Assembly: GCF_011745625.1 (NCBI RefSeq)
Contig: NW_027191480.1
Span: 186,001 to 250,000, forward strand
Length of the DNA: 64,000 nt
Source: Cladosporium halotolerans
Lineage: Eukaryota
Reading direction: 5' to 3'
Shown in pieces: positions 632 to 63,000 of the stretch (positions are counted from its first letter, which is position 1; each line of letters opens with the position of its first letter). The position numbers were made by a program, and so were the translations under genes. The notes below the pieces were generated by a model. The model was given only the letters and a program-made list of their open reading frames with translations, had not been told where the DNA came from and did no database searches.

Positions 632-1435
632 ATGGACACTGCAATCGATATCAACGATGCCAGCAAGGCCCTGGATCTGGCACATATCCGCTTCCAATTG
701 ATCAGATTAGAGGATACTGTGCTCTTCCACATCATCGAGCGAGTGCAATTCCCGTACAATGGCACTATCTACAAGGCTGGAGCAATCGATATTCCTGGAT
801 CAGACCTCAGCTTCTCAGACTGGGTTCTGCGTGAGCAGGAAGTCATGCAATCTAAAATCCGCCGTTACCAGAGCCCTGACGAGTATCCCTTCTTCCCGGA
901 CGCTATGCAAACTCCAATTCTTAAGGAGCTGAAGTACCCTAAGATTCTTTGGCCGAATACCGTCAATGTAAACAGCGAATTGAAGCAGCGCTACATCAAC
1001 GACATTCTCCCCGCCGCCTGCGCCAAGTTTGGACGTGAAGAACGTTCTGACTCACAAGAAAACTACGGAAGTGCTGCGACCGCAGACGTCAACACTCTTC
1101 AAGCACTGAGTCGACGCATTCATTTTGGCAAATTTGTCGCCGAGTCAAAGTTCCAATCAAATCCCGAGAAATTCGTCGCTCTTATCAAAGCCAAGGACAC
1201 GCAAGGCATTGATGATGCCATCACAAATGCGGCTGTCGAGAAGCAGGTACTGGAGAGATTACGGCTGAAGGCCAACACCTATGGCCAAGATCCGAATTTT
1301 TGCAGTGAAGGTGGTGTGCCAAAGGTCGATGTTGATGCTGTGGTGGCAATGTACAAGGATCATGTCATCCCGCTTACGAAAGTGGTTGAGGTCGACTACT
1401 TGATGGAGAGGCTGAAGGGTACCCAATGGGAATGA
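632..1435 (+). CDS. ARO7: Chorismate mutase (eukaryotic AroQ type), intronless
   Basis: 267-aa ORF with hallmark motifs [38 protein letters not shown] and [13 protein letters not shown]. Confidence 0.97.
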
Positions 1436-1996
1436 GCATTTTGACCAAAAGATAGCTGTTGTTTTCACGTAAAAGGAGATTGAAAAGTTCATGCCGGAAT
1501 CTCCAAAGGCTACTTGTGGCGTTGTACTAGCTGTTGTGAGGATATCCAGGGTCGAAAGGGTCAGCGGTGGGCCATGAGTACTTGCCACGAGAATATCATG
1601 AAGGTAAACATATTTAACAAGAGCGTCTGTACGACACGGAACTCCATGAGTCTATTTCACACGAGCCCCCTAGACCTTGAGCACCAGACGACGTCTCTTG
1701 GCCTTACGGCCGGCCGCAGATTGTATTCTGTGACCAAGTTCAAAGGACAAATTTTCTCGGATCAAGCTCGAAAGACTCTGCCTTGAGGATGAGATAGTAT
1801 TTAGTGGCCTTGGGCAAGGCGTTGCTGCACGTTTCCCGCCACATGTCAATCAATTCGGTGAGCTCTTTGAGCGCGTGACAGCGTGAAGACGCTATTCCGA
1901 TTCGGGACGTCGCGCGCACGTCCACGCGCTCCTTCTGCCTCGGCGAGATCAACGACACGAGACACCACCACCAAATCAAAGGACCTGCAATGCACG

Positions 1997-4374
1997 ATGC
2001 CGCCCCCGATCCTGAACGACTCGGAAGACGAGGACGGCGACGTCTTGTACGATGATCCAAAGGAGAGCAACTCAATCAGTTCAAGTGGCGGCTCGGGGCT
2101 GGAGATCTCGAAATTAGATGGAACGCACGACACCATTGATCAAAGCACAGGTTCAACAGGTAATCAGCCTTGATGTATCGCTGGTATTCGCAGCTCCCAC
2201 CATTGACTTCTCATATAGATCGTCTCCGGCAGCAGATCGAAGACGTTCAGCGACACCTTTGTGGGGACTCGAGCGAGAATGCTCAACCAAATGACCAACA
2301 GACGGCTCACGCAGCATCAGACTCCACGAAGCTAGATCGAAACAAACGCAGAAACTCTATTGTCGGCAGACCAGGCCCTATTTCTGACCCTCCCCGAGCT
2401 GTGCACCGCAGCAAAACTCTGACGACTTATTCCACTAAAAAGCCCACCTCATCTACCGCGGAGCGCGACCATTTCATTGCTAGATTTGGCGAAGACGCCA
2501 TTGCTCCCGAAAGCTCTCGATCAATTCGATATTCTGATCACTCTGGTACGCGAAGTTCAAACGGCCTGCCAACTGGATCTATGCAGAACGAGTTCATAAA
2601 CCACGAGCCTGCTATGTTCAAGGAAAGTGGCAGCACAATTCCTGACAACGAGTCGTCTCACGAGCGGATGGTCGAACAAGCTCTTCGAAGTAAGCCATTG
2701 AAGGGCGTTAGCTCACCTGAAATCAAGCTTTTCGACCCGAACGAGATGCCAAAAAGCTCTTCCTTTCCTTGGTCCCCTTCAGAGCAAACGGAATCTGCTC
2801 GAAGTAATCGTGCCGGCGATACGAATGGTCAGAAGGTATCGGCCGGAGTTGAAGTAGAAACTGGTAGCCAGGCCGCTATTAATCAGGGCAATATCGCCCA
2901 CCAGCAGAACGACACTGTCCCGGCTGGCGTTCCTCATCAAGAACAAGCTCCCGAGGAATCAGATCCGCGTCACGAAGTTGGCAGTGTGCATCGATCTAGC
3001 CCGACCGTCGAGGTCAACGCGGTCGAGGCTGAAGCACGAGCTTTTGCGGAGCCGGATGCAGTGCCTGCGAGCACGACGCAGAAGGCAGGTCGTGGGTGCA
3101 AACGCAAAGTTCAAAATGAGTCGAGCGAGCCTCTGAACTCGGACGACATCGCAGTTGGCCTGCCAAAGGAACGTTACAAGCCGAGGCCAAGCAAACGACG
3201 GGCAACTCACAATGTGGACGAAGCTATCGATTACTCCGTGGTTGTAGAGAAGGCAGCGAAGAAAAAGCGCACAAGGACGACAGGAGGCAGCTTTACTTCG
3301 GTCGAAGACCCGTTGCAAGGACCGACGACGCAGCGTTCATCTAAGCCAGAGGACGACCAGGAAACGATCACTGTGAAGGCTGCTGCGGCGCACGTCGTGC
3401 CGGCTGGTGAAGGGAAACCAGAGACCACTCAGACTCTCCAACAAGATGCTGACCCGCCAAAACCCTCTCCAATCGTCGAAGTGCCTGCAACTAAATCCGA
3501 GCAAACGCAAATCCCGAGCAAAGCAACCGGCCAGCCGTCTCAGAACGCCATAGCTGATGAAACCACCTTCGTAAAGCCCGCAGGCAAACTGAGAAAACCA
3601 ATCTCAAAGTCCAAGCGCAGCTCCACGACCATCTTCGAAGATCACGTAGACTTCACAGGCAAGCAACGATCACCGAGTCTCAGCCAACAGCAAGCTATGA
3701 GACAGACCGCTCTCAGGGACGTCAAGAACGAAGTGTCTCCAGCGCAAGCTCGCCGTGGACGTAAAACAATAATAGCCGACGAAGACGACGAGGACGAGTT
3801 GGCGCTGGATTCCGAACACAACAGCGAGCAGGCAGAGGCTCCGCCTAAGAAGCGAGGCCGAGGGCGGCCGCGCAAAGACACCTCGAAGACCGAAGCACAG
3901 ACTGAAGACTCCACTCTTTTCAAGACTGAACCGGAGACCAAAGACGAACCCAACGAGCCCACCATCGAACCCCCCTCCAAAAAGCGCAGAGGCCGGCCTC
4001 CAAAATCCGCACCTCCAGCTCCGGCACCCAACACATACACCAACGACACCGCCGAGCCCTCGACCTCCCATCCCGAACCACAGCAAGAAGAAGCCGACAC
4101 CTCCACGAAACACTCACCCGACGTCCCAGCAACCGAAGACCCTCGCAAACCCCCCACCATTCCAACTCCGTCTCCCGAAAAACAACTCCCAGCTCCATCA
4201 ACAAAGAACACGCCCGCGCCTCCCTCCCCCACCAAGCCGCCCAAACCCAGCCCGCCGACTCACTCGCCCATCAAGCGCGCCTCGCCGGCGCCGTACAGAG
4301 TCGGACTGAGCAGGAAGCGGCAGATCCCGTCGCTGCTGAAAGTTGTGAATCCCAGGCCGCCGAGGAACAACTAG
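1997..4374 (+). CDS. Low-complexity nuclear AT-hook protein (2 exons: 1997-2159, 2219-4374)
   Basis: ATG at 1997. Intron 2160-2218 (GTAATC...ATTGAC...TAG) joins two ORFs in frame. AT-hooks KRGRGRPRK and KRRGRPPK, motif GLPKERYKPRPSKRR, and a C-terminal YRVGLSRKRQIPSLLK. Confidence 0.85.
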
Positions 4375-56055: not shown

Positions 56056-58641
56056 GTTGTTGGTGGTGATGGCTATTGCGCAACAGCCGGATGTCGATGC
56101 GCTGGTGTTGACTGATGTGCTTGCGAGGATGTCACTTCGCAAGCAGGCTGGTTGAAAGTGTCGTAGTATGGTATCGTGGCAGCGCTGGTGTGTGTCAAAG
56201 AAACAGCGAGTGCAGCCGCGCGAACTTCACTTGACCTCGACCGAAGCCGGGACTCGAAGTCCTTCGACCCAGGAGCAAGTTGCATGCCACCATCTGCAAG
56301 CATGTCTTTATCGCATCAATGCAAACACAAATGTGGCCCTTCAATCAACATCGATCGATCCATCGACATTGGCTATCGATCTCTCGATGTATAAGGAGGC
56401 CAGTAAATGTATCTCACGCCTCCGCGCCGACTTCATATCATGACTCCAGAATAGTTCAGCATGGCACGAGTCCGAGGACGCTTGAGACTAAGTATAGGAC
56501 GTATTTTTGCGCAACCGAGCTTCAGCTAATGTTATAGCTGGTAATAGCTCTCTGTAACACGAGATAAGCACTGCAAAACAGCAGTTCAAACCGGTCCGAT
56601 ATTTCTAGCACGACGAGGTCGTTGTGACGAAGTCAAGGTTTAGGCCTGGTTAGGCGCAACCTACTCTAGCAGTGGAATGGTCTATCTTCTATGTTGCCAC
56701 ATCCAGAGAGACTGTCTTCCGTAGACGCTGCATTTTCGAGATAGTGGCCAGAGCAGAGGTTTAGACTTGTCGCTGAACGGTATTTTCATCGAAGAGAACC
56801 GCCAATAGATACTAAATGGCAATAGCGCTGTGACAAGAAGGACATGCATGGGGCATGGTAATTTCGAACGTTTTTGCATGGTGACAACATGCAGGGCCGT
56901 GTATGGGGGACTGTCATCATTGAAGCCTCCAAATCAACTCGCTACTTGTCAACGGCAGAGAAGACTGGGTCAGGAATTACAGATTTTGTGAGGCCAAGGT
57001 CCCCAATGAGTGCAGCGGCAATCCCTTCGCACGAAGGTTTGTGCCGACTCTGTAGATATCATGTGCCAGTCTAAATCATGCTTCGAGTCATTGTGATAGT
57101 AGACGGGCACTCTACAAGAACAGATGTCCATGCTCGCGATGTTGCCCGTGGTAGATCTGTCCTCAAACTCCCGAGGACGACCACGCAGCTATTTGTGTGG
57201 CAATTGCTGCGCTACCGGTCCCCTCTCATTTCTTTGGGCTCAAGCAGCTCTTCGTGCCAAATCGAGCATATGTAAATCTCTTTTCCGCCACAAGGTATTG
57301 GCGGATGGCCATCAAAGTGTGGATGCTTTTGATTGTACGTCAACTCATTGAATCGACGGAGTGACCCTTTCGGTCCTCTGAAGCCAAACCTTATTGATCG
57401 TAAGAAAGACTCTGCGGGCCTCTGCAATCCTGCGTAGCATTTCAAGGTTGAGTGCAGACATACCGTTGCTCCGTGTGTGACAAGGTAGCCAAGTCCCTGG
57501 TGCAGACCAACCTCAGGAAGGTAGATTGGGGTTGGCTTCCATATAGCCAGGCTTCGAGTAGAGAAGCGTTGAGAAAAGGAGCGCCTCTTCCTAATTTTAC
57601 CTACCCAAAGCAGACTTGGAGAGTTGGCCGTAAAGCCAGCAGTGACCGGTGAAGCGATGCGCTGCCCTACGGCCAGACCTTGCGGTCCTTCCCAGGCCTG
57701 CAATACCGGCCGGCAAATGGGCAGAACCATATACACCTGCTGCGGCCCTTGATATGAGGGTTCAGGAGCCCCTCGGATGTGCTTCAGAGCATATACATTT
57801 TCGTGAGCCTTGAAACCAAAGGTGTGGCTGCAATATGGCAGGGTCTTGGCGCGCGCTCGCACCGCATATAAGTGACGGGGGCCTTTCTGTGCAACAAAGC
57901 TCGCTTCCCCCGACACCCACAGCGTTCCCACCAGCACCACCAGCACCACCAGCAGCACCACCACCACCCCAGTCACACCGCAACCATCATCAGTGCAGTC
58001 ATCAGCATCGGCGCTTCTTCATCCGTCGCGCCCTTGATGACCTCCGTCATCGAGGCGAAGCTGCAACTGCCTTGGTCGACACCCAATCAACAACGCGCGA
58101 CCACCGGCGTTGGCGTCCCTCCGCCTCGCCTCGCCCTCGCCATGCACCACGTCCATGACGAGGCCGCTGGTAGTGAGAGCTGTCGACGAGAACCGTCACG
58201 GTTCACCTGCGTGGTGTCCTGACCGGCCCGTCAAGGTACGTGACCACCCCCTGAAGGAGACTCTAACATGGGAGGATCGCGCCAGCGCCTGAAGATAGGC
58301 GCGCGCACTTGCCAGAGCATGTTCCCAGCGCCTGTCATCCGACGGTGAGACTGCAAATGGACAACATGATATGGCCATTCGCGGATGTGACGCGACCGAT
58401 TGGAGGTGGCGCTCTACGGTCCTCACCCGAAGTTGGCTGCCCAGGCACCAGTCAAGAAGAACTTCACATCGGCTGCGAATTCATCTTCGCGCGCGACCTT
58501 GTGTGATCACTTCCGTGACAGCAGCGACACACAATAACCACGCTGACGATGCCAACCGAGTCAAAATCGCGCATTGGCCTCAACTCGCGCTCACATCGTT
58601 GAGCTCAAAAGTAAGTCTAACCATTTCAAGAGTTCCCTGTG

Positions 58642-58733
58642 TGGCGAGGATGACCCAAAAGACCAGATCCTAAGCGAGCCCGCCATCGTGGTTCGCAATG
58701 GGGAATCAAATCAAGAGCTAGAACTGATTGCCA
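58642..58733 (+). ncRNA. Box C/D snoRNA/scaRNA-like RNA, copy A (most diverged)
   Basis: C-like AGGATGA 58647-58653, D CTGA 58724-58727. Flanking TGGCG/TGCCA stem and internal GCGAGCC/GGTTCGC hairpin. Confidence 0.5.
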
Positions 58734-58891
58734 AGCACCGCCGCCGATCAAGATGGGAGTTGTACCGTTGTTGCTGCGAGAGAGAGCACCTGTTGACATA
58801 ATTCAAGTCCAGACATAGCGCGATCGCTTGAGGCCACGCTCATATCGGTCAACATTCAGGGTAAGTCGAAGGCTGCCCGGCAATCCGTTCC

Positions 58892-58983
58892 TGGCAAAGA
58901 TGACACAACAATAAGAACAGATACTTCTGCAGCAAGCCTTCCAGGCTAGCGTTGAAGATAATACACACGAGCAACCTGAGCCA
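58892..58983 (+). ncRNA. Box C/D snoRNA/scaRNA-like RNA, copy B
   Basis: TGGC-A-AAGATGA...CTGA-GCCA. U2-complementary AAGAACAGATACT 58913-58925, hairpin AGCCT/AGGCT, C'-like TTGAAGA. Confidence 0.6.
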
Positions 58984-59134
58984 AAGCCCCTCAAAACTCA
59001 TAATGCGATCTCCACTGCTGAGGCGAAAGACAGCACAAGCTAACACGCTTCAAGTTTAGGTGCCGGCTACTCGTTTTCGCCCACACTCGTCTTCCTTGAC
59101 CCAAGAGTAAGTCGAAAGCTGCCTGGCGTTCCCT

Positions 59135-59232
59135 TTTTGGCAAGGATGAAGCAAAAGCAAGAACAGATACTTCTGCAGCAAGCCTTGCAGGCTAGCGTTG
59201 AAGATAATACACACGAGCAAACTGAGCCAAAA
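59135..59232 (+). ncRNA. Box C/D snoRNA/scaRNA-like RNA, copy C
   Basis: Perfect 7-bp terminal stem TTTTGGC/GCCAAAA enclosing AGGATGA (59143-59149) and CTGA (59222-59225). U2-complementary tract 59159-59171. Confidence 0.68.
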
Positions 59233-59391
59233 CCCCCTCAGAACTCATGATGCGATCTCTACTGCTGAGGCGAAAGATAGCAAGAGCTGACACGCGTCAA
59301 GCTTAGGTCTCGTGTATTCTCTTTGGCCCTCACTCAGAGTCTTCGTTCCAAGAGTAAGGTGAGTGTCGAAAGCTGCCTCAGACTTCCCTCC

Positions 59392-59478
59392 TGGCAAGGA
59401 TGAAAAAGAACAGATAGCCTAAAGCAAGCCGTCCCGGCTCGCATGACGAATCAACATTAGAGCTAAAGCTGACCGCCA
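59392..59478 (+). ncRNA. Box C/D snoRNA/scaRNA-like RNA, copy D
   Basis: TGGC-A-AGGATGA (59397-59403), AAAAGAACAGATA, D'-like CTAA, hairpin AGCCG/CGGCT, C'-like ATGACGA, D CTGA 59469-59472, then CC-GCCA. Confidence 0.62.
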
Positions 59479-59914
59479 ACCCCCCTCGGAAGTGATGATG
59501 CGATCTCCGCTGCTGAAGCGCAAGATGGCAAGAGCTGACAAGCTTGAAGTTCACAGATGACCACACAGGAGCCACGAGTCGAACACCACACCTTGAGGTG
59601 CAAGAGTTTACCAGACAAGGTGGTTTCTTCCGGGTGACAAAGCAGGATCCACTTGAGAGGCACGGCTTCCATGCACGCGCAAGCTAGCGTCGTCCAATGC
59701 GGAAACATTCTCCCTCGCTGCGAACGGAGTTTGCAAAAGAACTCTTCAAGAGCCGTTGAATCATACCAGCTTGGAGTGGCCAACTGCTTCTTGGTGTAGC
59801 GACGGCGCCTACATGGTCAGGAGTGGGAGCTCCATCGTTCTGGCCCTCCGAGGGAGCGATTGAGCAAGGTAAGAGCTCATTTCTTTGGCGCCATTTATGT
59901 CTGACCGAAGCCAC

Positions 59915-60059
59915 GCGGCAATGATGAAATTCTCACAGAGTACGTGACCTTCAGAAAGACAGAAAAATCTGATAAAATATCTGTTGTGGCCGCTGAAGGT
60001 CACATCACTCGCCGAGAAACCTGCAAGGAAGTTTTGTGCTGAACCTTGTTCTGAGCCGC
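59915..60059 (+). ncRNA. Intronic box C/D snoRNA candidate, unrelated in sequence to copies A-D
   Basis: GCGGC-A-ATGATGA (59921-59927)...CTGA (60051-60054)-GCCGC, with a perfect 11-bp internal helix 59944-59954/59993-60003. It lies in an intron-like segment: GTAAGA 59869, GCTAAC 60103, TAG 60127. Confidence 0.72.
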
Positions 60060-63000
60060 CGTAGTTGCAAGGAATCCTGACAATGTTCGAAGCAAGAAAC
60101 GCGCTAACAATCGGGCATGCTCGCTAGATCACAAGAATTGCTGCGACGAGCATCACGAAGCTCAGCCGATTACCAGCCTCCGACCAGATATTCCGATCGT
60201 CGCAAGCGGTAAGAAGGGCGTCTGCGGTCGGAAAGCACAGGTTACCCTCATGCGTACGGGTTGTCGCCTGTTAGCTGGCAGCCTTTGATACTTGCTGGAG
60301 GAAAAGTTCAGCAACACTGAGGCTTGCGGCAACGATGCTCGTTTTGACGAAAGGCGTCTATGATAACACCAGCAGGAGCAGGGACGGCTCGCCATGCGGC
60401 AGCGTTGACAGTTGCTCAGGCATGTCGTGCCCAGCACACTCTGGCACCTGGATCAGGTGAGTTGGTGTCTCGTAGCGATTCTATGGGGTTGGAGAGAGCG
60501 GGGATGTCGTTGGGCGGTTTGAAGGGACGGTTCCGGATATTCTTAGGCTTGCCACGAGCCATTCGTTTGATTGATCGGACCGTAGAGCAAATGAAAAGAG
60601 ACGCTTTTGAGACCCAATTCGACTTCGTCATCTTGATCCTCTCACAGATTTGTCACAGTAGCGTTGCTGACGGGCTGGATTGCACAGAAAACTATGCGCA
60701 GCAGCGTAGTGGCAGTGACGTTCGGGCCAGGCATTTTCAGGACCTGAATTCAGGATCGGCCTCTCCTAGTGATATCGGGATTGGATGTCGGCTCTTGCTG
60801 GCAGAAAAGCTTAACGCAAACGGACCCGCGGCTGCAATCATCGACAAGAATACCATTCGACAAGAATATCATTGGCCCGGATTAATGTGTTCCGACAAAG
60901 CAGATCATTGTCAATAATTGGAGGCCTTCTGATAACTTGCCTGATCCGGATCCAGCACCCGATACGTCGTTACCAGTTCAGAATCAGAACATGGCGCGGT
61001 CCTTGAAGTTCTTCACCAGTACATAACCCCAGGAGCAGCCGAAGATGTTTCGACGACACTCTTTGCAGCTATCGGGATCATATGGAGGATTGCATCTCCT
61101 AATTCAACTACTGGTGCCGGCAAGGCTTGAGCTAAATCCGGGCTGGCGATCCACATTCCGATGTCGCGTATGAACATACACGCCGGAAGTCTGTCGCCAA
61201 TATAAGCACATCGATTCGGGCTGTACATGGAAAGTTGGGATAATCAGAGCGAATACGGCAGCCTTGCCGCATTATTGTTCTCGAAAGAATGCCTATGCGC
61301 ACGTTCCGGCTTACGAGAAACTGCGCAAGATGCCCACTGCCTTTTCGGCACAGGAGTATTCCATTCGGACCAGCTACCACGATCGTGTGTGTGGCAAGTA
61401 CACGACCGAGCAAGTCTGGAAGCAGTCTGCGTATGGCTCGCAGATAAGTAGTGACTTGACGGCGCTGAGCTGCAGAGCAGTATGCGAATGAGCCTTCTCT
61501 TCGATGCTGTCTCACCCCACAGACTCTGTACAATCGGCGATGCTTTCGCCTCTGGCCATTCTACCGAGTGTCATGTCCACAACAGGCGCTTGATTCCCAA
61601 TGCAACCCTTCTCGCATGCGTCGGACGGGTCGTCGTGGTCTCGAAGAGGGCCGGTCCTTGGTGTGTGGAAAGTCGACCGCGTCGCAATTGATGAGCTGCA
61701 CGCGCCGAATATGTTCTATCGCCTCCGTGGAACAAATACGGGGCCAGAGTCTCGTCGAGGAAAACGGCTGCTGCCGGAGAAAGGATCCTCCAAGGTCTCA
61801 CGAGGTCATGCAGCGAGCCGGACTCGTTGCAAAGGAGACCCACCACAGCTGAACGCCATTGCCCCACGAGAGAAGCCGAATTCCGGCGGTGTCCAAAGTC
61901 TATCACGACTTCAGCTCGTCCATAATTATTTGTCTGCCATCGGCGCACTTCAGCACCCACGCGTGACATGACCTTTGCAGATCTTCTGTCGGCTGCTGAA
62001 CTGACTGGTCCGATGTTGCTTTGGTCATCCCTCAATGAACAGCGCTGAAGTCTGTGCTTGCTCCTACAGCCCGCAGAAGCTTGTCTCTCACTGGACGCTG
62101 ATTGTGCCTTGCCGGCCTTTCAACACCCAAGAATGGATTTTGCAACATGTGAATCCCAAGTCGTGGCTTTCCTGGGGTTTCAAATGGTTTTGTGATCAAC
62201 CGGCTGCCGTCTGAAAGCGGCTGCTATCCGTCCAGCTACGCTCTGCAAGACACGCGAAACTGCGCGTCCGAATTTCAAATGCCTTGTCATCCACGCAGGT
62301 CGTCTACAGAGCCTGTCGCGCCAGCCCTTCATCGAGCGATGTTGATAGTGGAGTACCATCTCTCGAGCACCGACTGTATCCGCCTCTTGCAAGATACCAA
62401 ACTGCATACCATCACCAGGCTTCTTGCATGAGCTGTGCTCGCCCTACCTGTGGCGTAAACCGGGGTCGAACTCCTTGTCACAAACAAAAGAGCGCTTCGA
62501 TCGCGGATGTCAGGTCGTTGCGCTACGTGCAGAGATTGCCCAATCCGATACTCTTGTTAACGGCGAGGTCTTTGTGCTTCGGGTCACGCAGCAATTGGAG
62601 AAATACACAATGTCGCGTGGCAAACTGACATTGAGCGAGGGATGCGTCTCTCGATGCCGTCCTCGTGCTGCAAGATCACCAGTCTGGATCTCGCTGTCAC
62701 CAGCAGATCATGAGATATGCCTTGAGCATGTAAAGAACCTCGGCCGGCGATCTTCGGTGGCATGCTGCCGATGGCGAATGGCAATGAGTGCAACAAGCGT
62801 CCAGGAGGTGCCACGGTCAAGGAGTCGAAGGTCATCGGCGTCGTCGCAATGCAATGTCGTGTCTGCGATCGCATTCCATCCATGGGTCCTCCTTGGCGAC
62901 GTTCCGGGCACTCCAGCAGGGGAGCGTGTTTCACGTCAGGCGTAGTGTTGCGTCCTGAAGAGGGTGCTTTGTATGGCAAAACAAGAGCGTGCCAAGCCTC

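Follow-up and report, generated by a model that had tools for sequence, protein, structure and literature searches.

What does a locus encode that looks like a gene, is built of four similar intron-bearing repeats and yields no credible protein? This question is raised by positions 58561-59556 of a 64,000-nt stretch of the Cladosporium halotolerans genome (contig NW_027191480.1), which we analysed as a whole and call the window; all coordinates refer to it. An initial annotation had proposed here a non-coding host transcript, amplified in tandem, with box C/D guide RNAs in its introns. Sequence-level tests supported this proposal: the array, its boxes and stems, an snRNA complementarity and the lack of coding potential can all be read from the DNA. 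The complementarity goes beyond the initial annotation, which named no target, and suggests that the guide preceding the D' box is antisense to U2 small nuclear RNA (snRNA). We favour, with a probability of about 0.72, a non-coding host gene of the UHG type whose introns carry box C/D RNAs, the tandem set of four probably being guides for 2'-O-methylation of U2.

The four units lie head to tail on the plus strand, each about 247-250 nt long, and consist of a 47-48-nt mini-exon followed by a 199-203-nt intron. Tandem Repeats Finder reported an array with a period of 247 nt at 58913-59540 (2.6 copies, 79% matches), and a MAFFT alignment of the four units over 58561-59556 gave a mean column identity of 76%. 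Exon 1 ends at 58610 and is followed by predicted intron 1 (58611-58812, 202 nt), with the donor AAA/GTAAGT, a branch-like TTGACAT and a CAG end. Mini-exon 2 (58813-58860, 48 nt, non-coding) stands between this CAG and the GTAAGT of intron 2 (58861-59059, 199 nt; AGG/GTAAGT, CTAACAC, TAG). Then follow mini-exon 3 (59060-59106, 47 nt), intron 3 (59107-59306, 200 nt; AGA/GTAAGT, CTGACAC, TAG), mini-exon 4 (59307-59353, 47 nt) and intron 4 (59354-59556, 203 nt; AGA/GTAAGG, CTGACAA, CAG), the last with an alternative donor GTGAGT at 59359, 5 nt downstream of GTAAGG. A fungal-type branch motif lies 14-17 nt upstream of the terminal CAG or TAG in all four introns, and donor, branch and acceptor signals are canonical and intact in 4 of 4 units. 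The units of about 246-250 nt described in the initial annotation, with their GTAAGT or GTAAGG donors, branch motif plus YAG and spacers of 47-48 nt, all lie where it had put them.

Each of the four introns carries one box C/D module of 88-93 nt, always in the order TGGC stem, box C (ARGATGA), guide, D', hairpin, C', second guide, CTGA and GCCA stem. The guide between C and D' measures 15-23 nt and that between C' and D 17-19 nt. Candidate RNA 1 (58642-58734, plus strand, 93 nt) begins with the stem strand TGGC at 58642-45 and has box C AGGATGA at 58647-53, an interrupted U2 antisense element at 58657-69, D' CTAA at 58670-73, C' ATGGGGA at 58698-704, box D CTGA at 58724-27 and GCCA at 58730-33. 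In candidate RNA 2 (58892-58984, plus strand, 93 nt) the corresponding elements are C AAGATGA 58897-903, U2 antisense 58911-25, D' CTGC 58927-30, C' TTGAAGA 58952-58, D CTGA 58976-79 and GCCA 58980-83. Candidate RNA 3 (59138-59230, plus strand, 93 nt) has C AGGATGA 59143-49, U2 antisense 59159-71, D' CTGC 59173-76, C' TTGAAGA 59198-204 and D CTGA 59222-25. Candidate RNA 4 (59392-59479, plus strand) is shorter, at 88 nt, with C AGGATGA 59397-403, U2 antisense 59404-16, D' CTAA 59419-22, C' ATGACGA 59443-49, D CTGA 59469-72 and GCCA 59475-78.

Box D is CTGA in all four copies, and the terminal stem TGGC/GCCA is invariant, with 4 of 4 pairs formed in every copy and an extension to 7 bp in unit 3. 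D' (CTAA or CTGC) stands directly 5' of the internal hairpin and C' (ATGGGGA, TTGAAGA or ATGACGA) directly 3' of it. Both of these boxes are degenerate, as is usual for D' and C'; CUGC also serves as a D' box in Neurospora crassa CD15 (PMC2780460). The consensus fold kept a 7-bp hairpin between D' and C', in which one pair is changed on both sides (UA in two copies, GC in one, AU in one), a covariation that carries little weight with four paralogues only. Folding of the whole introns to a consensus gave nothing beyond this hairpin. The box positions, the TGGC/GCCA stem, the compensatory change and the end of GATGA 42 nt after the donor in units 1-3 had been noted in the initial annotation, and we found them as described. 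The distance from donor to module is 31 nt in the first three units and 38 nt in the fourth, and the module ends 75-78 nt before the acceptor; such distances fall in the range described as favourable for the processing of intronic snoRNAs (PMC2780460).

Within the window, these modules are confined to the locus. The pattern TGGC[AG]A[AG]GATGA had four matches on both strands of the 64 kb, at 58642, 58892, 59138 and 59392 only. A simple C/D grammar ([AG]NGATGA, CTGA 45-160 nt downstream, and boxes flanked at 0-2 nt by a stem of 4 bp or more) found five matches on both strands, all on the plus strand between 58647 and 60054, and none elsewhere, and a covariance model built from the four modules had no further match in the window. 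In the intron tails, another C/D-like unit (TGATGC...CTGA...CTGAC) was considered and rejected: its C-like box is lost in units 1 and 2, it has no terminal stem, and its CTGAC is the branch site. The tails (58735-58812, 58985-59059, 59231-59306 and 59480-59556) also hold a small hairpin of the TGCTG...CAGCA type just upstream of the branch site, which may be a processing or splicing element.

The best conserved stretch of the module outside the boxes is AAGA[AC]CAGAT, just upstream of D'. We took it to be the complement of U2 just behind the branch-point-recognition sequence GUAGUA, and then tested this against printed sequences. Two stand-ins for U2 were used: yeast nt 31-78 as printed in PMC4712673, from which the fragment of nt 31-55 was scanned, and an anti-human-U2 morpholino printed in PMC4028248. 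Against yeast U2, 13 contiguous Watson-Crick base pairs were formed by units 2 and 3 (nt 36-48) and by unit 4 (nt 38-50), and the morpholino shares 15 nt with unit 2, 13 with unit 3 and 11 with unit 4. The D' guides of units 2-4 are 13-15-nt perfect complements of U2 nt 36-50 in yeast numbering. The complement ends 1 nt (units 2 and 3) or 2 nt (unit 4) upstream of D', and a methylation guide normally sits just before D'. No other complement of at least 11 nt to the U2 fragment was found on either strand of the window. By a rough estimate, a chance 13-mer match of about five independent guides to about 8 kb of rRNA and snRNA would have a probability of about 0.005. With the yeast and human stand-ins the guides are complementary to a spliceosomal snRNA made by RNA polymerase II (Pol II), as expected of a small Cajal body-specific RNA (scaRNA). 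A long UG repeat is the localisation element of metazoan C/D scaRNAs, and no run of UG or GU repeats is visible in the four module sequences. In the N. crassa supplement of PMC2780460 the U2 stretch AUCAAGUGUAGU is numbered alike, and the motif GUAGUAUCUGUUCUU appears in publications about the U2 of yeast, fish, frog, plant and human.

Conservation within the array follows the modules and not the exons. Pairwise identity between units, a comparison of paralogues and not of orthologues, is 0.49-0.68 in the mini-exons, 0.51-0.77 in the intron leader, 0.65-0.91 in the C/D module and 0.60-0.86 in the intron tail; units 2 and 3 have a module identity of 0.91 and an exon identity of 0.49. The observation in the initial annotation that introns are better conserved than spacers holds with these values, as does its statement that the spacers give no credible protein, the longest ATG-initiated open reading frame (ORF) in the joined exons being 42 aa. 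No ORF near the array had a Pfam match, and we rejected both minus-strand coding and a protein-coding host, the ORFs being short and without such a match. Overall the units are 59-80% identical, with many transversions, and their indices of repeat-induced point mutation (RIP) are not RIP-like; hence the copies are old and have evolved by ordinary substitution.

Contigs from other public runs (X1, X2, X6 and X17) matched the locus at about 90-99% identity. A contig from the soil run X6 lacks exactly 247 nt (58982 to 59230) and hence has three units, and one X1 contig is short of about one unit, 314 nt at 58960-59275 being replaced by 62 other letters. These two differences indicate that copy number varies between relatives. 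In X2 the whole locus is covered in three pieces. X17 (organism F) belongs to a group of twelve small-share runs that come from several studies; it gave two short contigs, 58329-58495 and 58520-58742, at about 97% identity. The second of them stops 8 nt beyond the last nucleotide of C/D RNA 1, and the pattern may reflect either an abundant 5'-extended RNA or patchy low-depth DNA.

Several findings weigh against guides for U2, and the first concerns the methylated nucleotide. The hairpin, which brings D' and C' together, locates the D' boxes fairly well. Counted from them by the box+5 rule, the predicted site is A39 in units 2 and 3, U40 in unit 4 and U42 in unit 1, so that the sites differ among the paralogues and none is C41, which pairs with guide position 6-7 in units 2-4 or 4 in unit 1, not 5. 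A39, U40 and U42 are not known to be 2'-O-methylated. The modifications described for this stretch are Cm40 in vertebrates and Cm41 in Drosophila, with 2'-O-methylation also reported in fission yeast (PMC5733568). For C41 to be the fifth position, D' would have to be read 1-2 nt upstream, as CCUA or UUCU. Since C41 is not at guide position 5, our claim covers the U2 region and not the exact nucleotide. The spacing from guide to D' differs among the paralogues by small indels, and a relative's contig has a 1-nt deletion at 58925 (among the differences listed, 40 of 325). The initial annotation had called the cassette diversifying, which is right for this spacing and for the D-side guides.

Other points on the same side concern the modules and the searches. 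All four copies of box C depart from RUGAUGA at position 2, where three have G (AGGATGA) and one has A (AAGATGA) in the place of U; the remaining 6 of 7 positions agree, and the GAUGA core is intact. In unit 1 the antisense element is interrupted by two changes, with 5 + 6 bp around one mismatch in a hand alignment and a longest computed run of 6 against yeast U2. This region of the U2 of C. halotolerans itself is assumed to be invariant from the yeast sequence, the human oligonucleotide and an N. crassa fragment reaching to U38. The comparison with Rfam, which the initial annotation had put forward as a check, went against it: no family reached its gathering score in the window, the best sub-threshold match being ceN114 (19.5 bits against a threshold of 44) and the C/D-like matches being weak, at 15-20 bits. 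The D-side guides had no target in the rRNA scans described below. No orthologue was found in a metagenome search for box C plus guide: of its 43 loci none had a D box and stem, and by inspection they were mostly bacterial coding sequence in appearance. No N. crassa C/D sequence in the PMC2780460 supplement holds a similar guide; the sole AACAGAU match there is the H/ACA RNA ACA13. Finally, the contigs of relatives are of genomic type, with introns included, and have no bearing on splicing.

Some of these points would also suit decaying snoRNA-like paralogues or pseudogenes, which would form no stable ribonucleoprotein (RNP), or form one from a single copy, and whose shared features would have been kept by recent duplication or gene conversion and not through selection. 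We consider this unlikely. It would account for the broken antisense element and the weakest C' box in unit 1, for the non-consensus box C in all copies and for the disagreement of the box+5 sites; the variable copy number in relatives is in its favour too. However, units that are 59-80% identical with many transversions are not recent copies, and the boxes, stems and D' guide were kept while the exons fell to 0.49-0.68 identity. Moreover, the pairing of the hairpin survives a two-sided change, and splice signals are intact in all four units.

Slightly less probable still is that these are ordinary rRNA-directed C/D snoRNAs, with targets in uncovered parts of the rRNA and an incidental complementarity to U2. 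Most fungal C/D snoRNAs are directed at rRNA, which accounts for 64 of the 71 sites predicted in N. crassa (PMC2780460); spacers and expansion segments are species-specific, and three D-side guides have no assigned target. As stand-in rRNA we used eukaryotic rDNA from contaminant contigs in bacterial assemblies (at least 62 loci), from IMG/VR and from one further contig. The contaminants (L001-L062) are short contigs, fungus-like and plant-like, in bacterial isolate and metagenome-assembled genomes of a GTDB-based collection. They covered the small-subunit rRNA, 5.8S and the spacers (L040), and large-subunit (LSU) model positions 1-2289 (L008) and 26-2256 (L004); LSU positions 1312-3401 were represented by a plant-like sequence with 150 N (L071) and 3007-3393 by a further piece (L063). 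Above about position 2289 the LSU is therefore covered only by plant-like sequence with 150 masked bases and a short piece of unknown origin, which favours this alternative. The IMG/VR loci L064-L068, L070 and L115-L117 were neither rRNA nor U2 and were set aside. When the eight guides were compared with both strands of this material, the best sense matches reached 10-12 bp, included wobbles or a mismatch, and did not exceed the antisense-strand background. An incidental match is unlikely for a perfect U2 complement of 13-15 nt that lies at the canonical place, is conserved in three of the four paralogues and has no second occurrence on either strand of the window. The region of the U24 site in 25S rRNA looked promising in plant-like sequences and was rejected because fungus-like sequences show two mismatches. 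Divergence has produced three versions of the D-side guide; those of units 1 (58705-58723) and 4 (59450-59468) share AGAGCTA and resemble the 18S sense strand and not its complement, and their best rDNA matches are all to the antisense strand.

Chance box-like motifs in a minisatellite, or in a piece of some dispersed repeat or transposon, would agree with the tandem repetition of the locus and are nevertheless highly improbable, as the model and grammar searches of the window left no copy outside the locus, the units have no RIP signature and a transposon would not jointly explain splice signals, C/D architecture and a U2 antisense element.

Returning to the host gene of U2-directed guides, it would extend beyond the array and hold a fifth C/D-bearing intron, which is new with respect to the initial annotation. 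Putative exon 5 of the same transcript (59557-59868, plus strand) has no long ORF and is followed by putative intron 5 (59869-60127, plus strand; AAG/GTAAGA, CTAAC at 60104-08, TAG at 60125-27). This intron contains a box C/D candidate unrelated to those of units 1-4 (59915-60059, plus strand, 145 nt), with box C ATGATGA at 59921-27, which fits the consensus perfectly, box D CTGA at 60051-54 and a 5-bp stem GCGGC/GCCGC. It also holds a perfect 11-bp inverted repeat, GTGACCTTCAG (59945-59955) and CTGAAGGTCAC (59993-60003), which explains a weak spurious Rfam match to HIV_GSL3; its other Rfam matches are weak, sub-threshold and C/D-like. No convincing target was found for this candidate: its best matches span 10-11 bp, lie at the 3' end of 18S rRNA and in the 5' external transcribed spacer of another fungus, and are at chance level. 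Five introns with one C/D candidate each, together with non-coding exons, fit a UHG-like snoRNA host gene. A further donor-like GTAAGA at 60209, after exon 6, suggests that the host transcript may continue.

Around the host, a minus-strand ORF of 268 aa (57212-58018) is divergent from it, and the two likely share a promoter region from 58019 to about 58560. Within this ORF, 57928-57968 is a CCA / CCACCAGCA repeat with 4.6 copies of 9 nt. Downstream, an ORF of 185 aa (60360-60917) has no Pfam match and looks non-coding.

Tandem sets of snoRNA paralogues are ordinary in plants and mammals. The mammalian SNORD115/SNORD116 and SNORD113/114 arrays are tandem units of a non-coding exon and a C/D-bearing intron, as are the units here; they have tens of copies, are imprinted and carry mostly orphan guides, whereas the present array has four copies, lies in a fungus and shows a clear snRNA complement. 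Clusters I-V of N. crassa (Liu et al., 2009, PMC2780460) share with our locus one C/D snoRNA per short intron of a multi-intron host, hosts with short ORFs, canonical fungal splice signals and introns of the filamentous-fungus type. That study likens these one-snoRNA-per-intron clusters in short-ORF hosts to UHG and gas5, and places 45 of 55 C/D snoRNAs in introns. Its clusters hold unrelated, mostly rRNA-directed and yeast-conserved snoRNAs, whereas here four of five modules are paralogues from exon+intron duplication. Most snoRNA genes of N. crassa are singletons (PMC2780460), and fungal families have as a rule one member per species according to 'The fungal snoRNAome', so that a four-copy tandem paralogue set is unusual for a fungus. 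The set would be a new family in a known arrangement.

Guides for the 5' part of U2 have precedents. N. crassa CD29 guides U2-Am31 and CD26 guides U2-Gm183, and the Am31 methylation was mapped by primer extension, which provides a fungal case (PMC2780460). CD29 and human SCARNA9 (mgU2-19/30; U2-Am31/Am30) resemble the RNAs here as C/D guides beside the branch-point-recognition sequence. They differ in the guide used and in the stretch paired: CD29 uses its D guide on U2 nt 27-38, with A31 as the target, whereas here it is the D' guide that pairs, and with nt 36-50. No sequence similarity to the RNAs here was seen beyond the boxes. The antisense elements of Drosophila scaRNA:MeU2-C41 and mouse MBII-19 cover the same U2 stretch; a guide of this kind should pair C41 with the fifth nucleotide upstream of D or D', and the RNAs here do not. 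S. cerevisiae has no 2'-O-methylation of its snRNAs and has served as a test host for guides (PMC5733568). scaRNA:MeU2-C41 is a verified guide, described in 2018 as without an identified orthologue in other species (PMC5733568), and a table of a 2021 review assigns MBII-19 to human Cm40 and scaRNA28 to Um47. A fission-yeast C/D survey predicted one U6 site and no U2 site (PMC4138321). Literature searches with the guide motif returned anti-U2 oligonucleotides and no snoRNA paper, and among the papers listed for a guide of U2 Cm40 none was on fungi; the family list of 'The fungal snoRNAome' may hold the family.

Expression, splicing, RNP assembly and methylation we infer as follows. A UHG-type host gene on the plus strand, beginning near 58.5 kb and reaching 60.13 kb or beyond, would contain at least five short introns with one box C/D RNA each. 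Introns 1-4 and the mini-exons preceding them would derive from tandem duplication of a unit of about 247 nt, with three or four copies in relatives. Pol II would transcribe the host, and each intron would be spliced out, debranched and trimmed by exonucleases as far as an RNP assembled at the C/D kink-turn and the TGGC/GCCA stem. The orthologues of Snu13, Nop56, Nop58 and fibrillarin/Nop1 would be part of this RNP, and its RNA would be 88-93 nt long. The D'-adjacent element conserved in the four paralogues would pair with U2 nt 36-50, which comprise the 3' half of GUAGUA and the nucleotides that follow, and most likely guide 2'-O-methylation within nt 39-42, the region that contains Cm40/41 in fission yeast and animals. 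The RNAs would act like a box C/D scaRNA.

A further reading, which we regard as doubtful, takes the array as a fungal family, so far undescribed, that guides 2'-O-methylation of U2 where it recognises the branch point, and adds two points. The first is diversification by 'guide sliding', in which new modification sites would arise with an unchanged antisense element: small indels leave 1, 3 or 4 nt between the element and D', and these would direct the RNP to U42, U40 or A39. The second is a splicing feedback loop: the guides would be freed only by U2-dependent splicing of their own introns, so that the locus could couple U2 modification to splicing activity.

In summary, Drosophila and mouse are the only species with known or proposed guides for 2'-O-methylation in this part of U2, and a fungal C/D family antisense to exactly this part would offer a direct handle on U2 methylation and splicing. 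The locus would also be a clean fungal case of snoRNA paralogues arising from exon+intron tandem duplication, paralogues of a kind that the fungal surveys consulted call unusual. Finally, it would represent a non-coding gene of five introns of a kind missed by both ORF-based and Rfam-based annotation.

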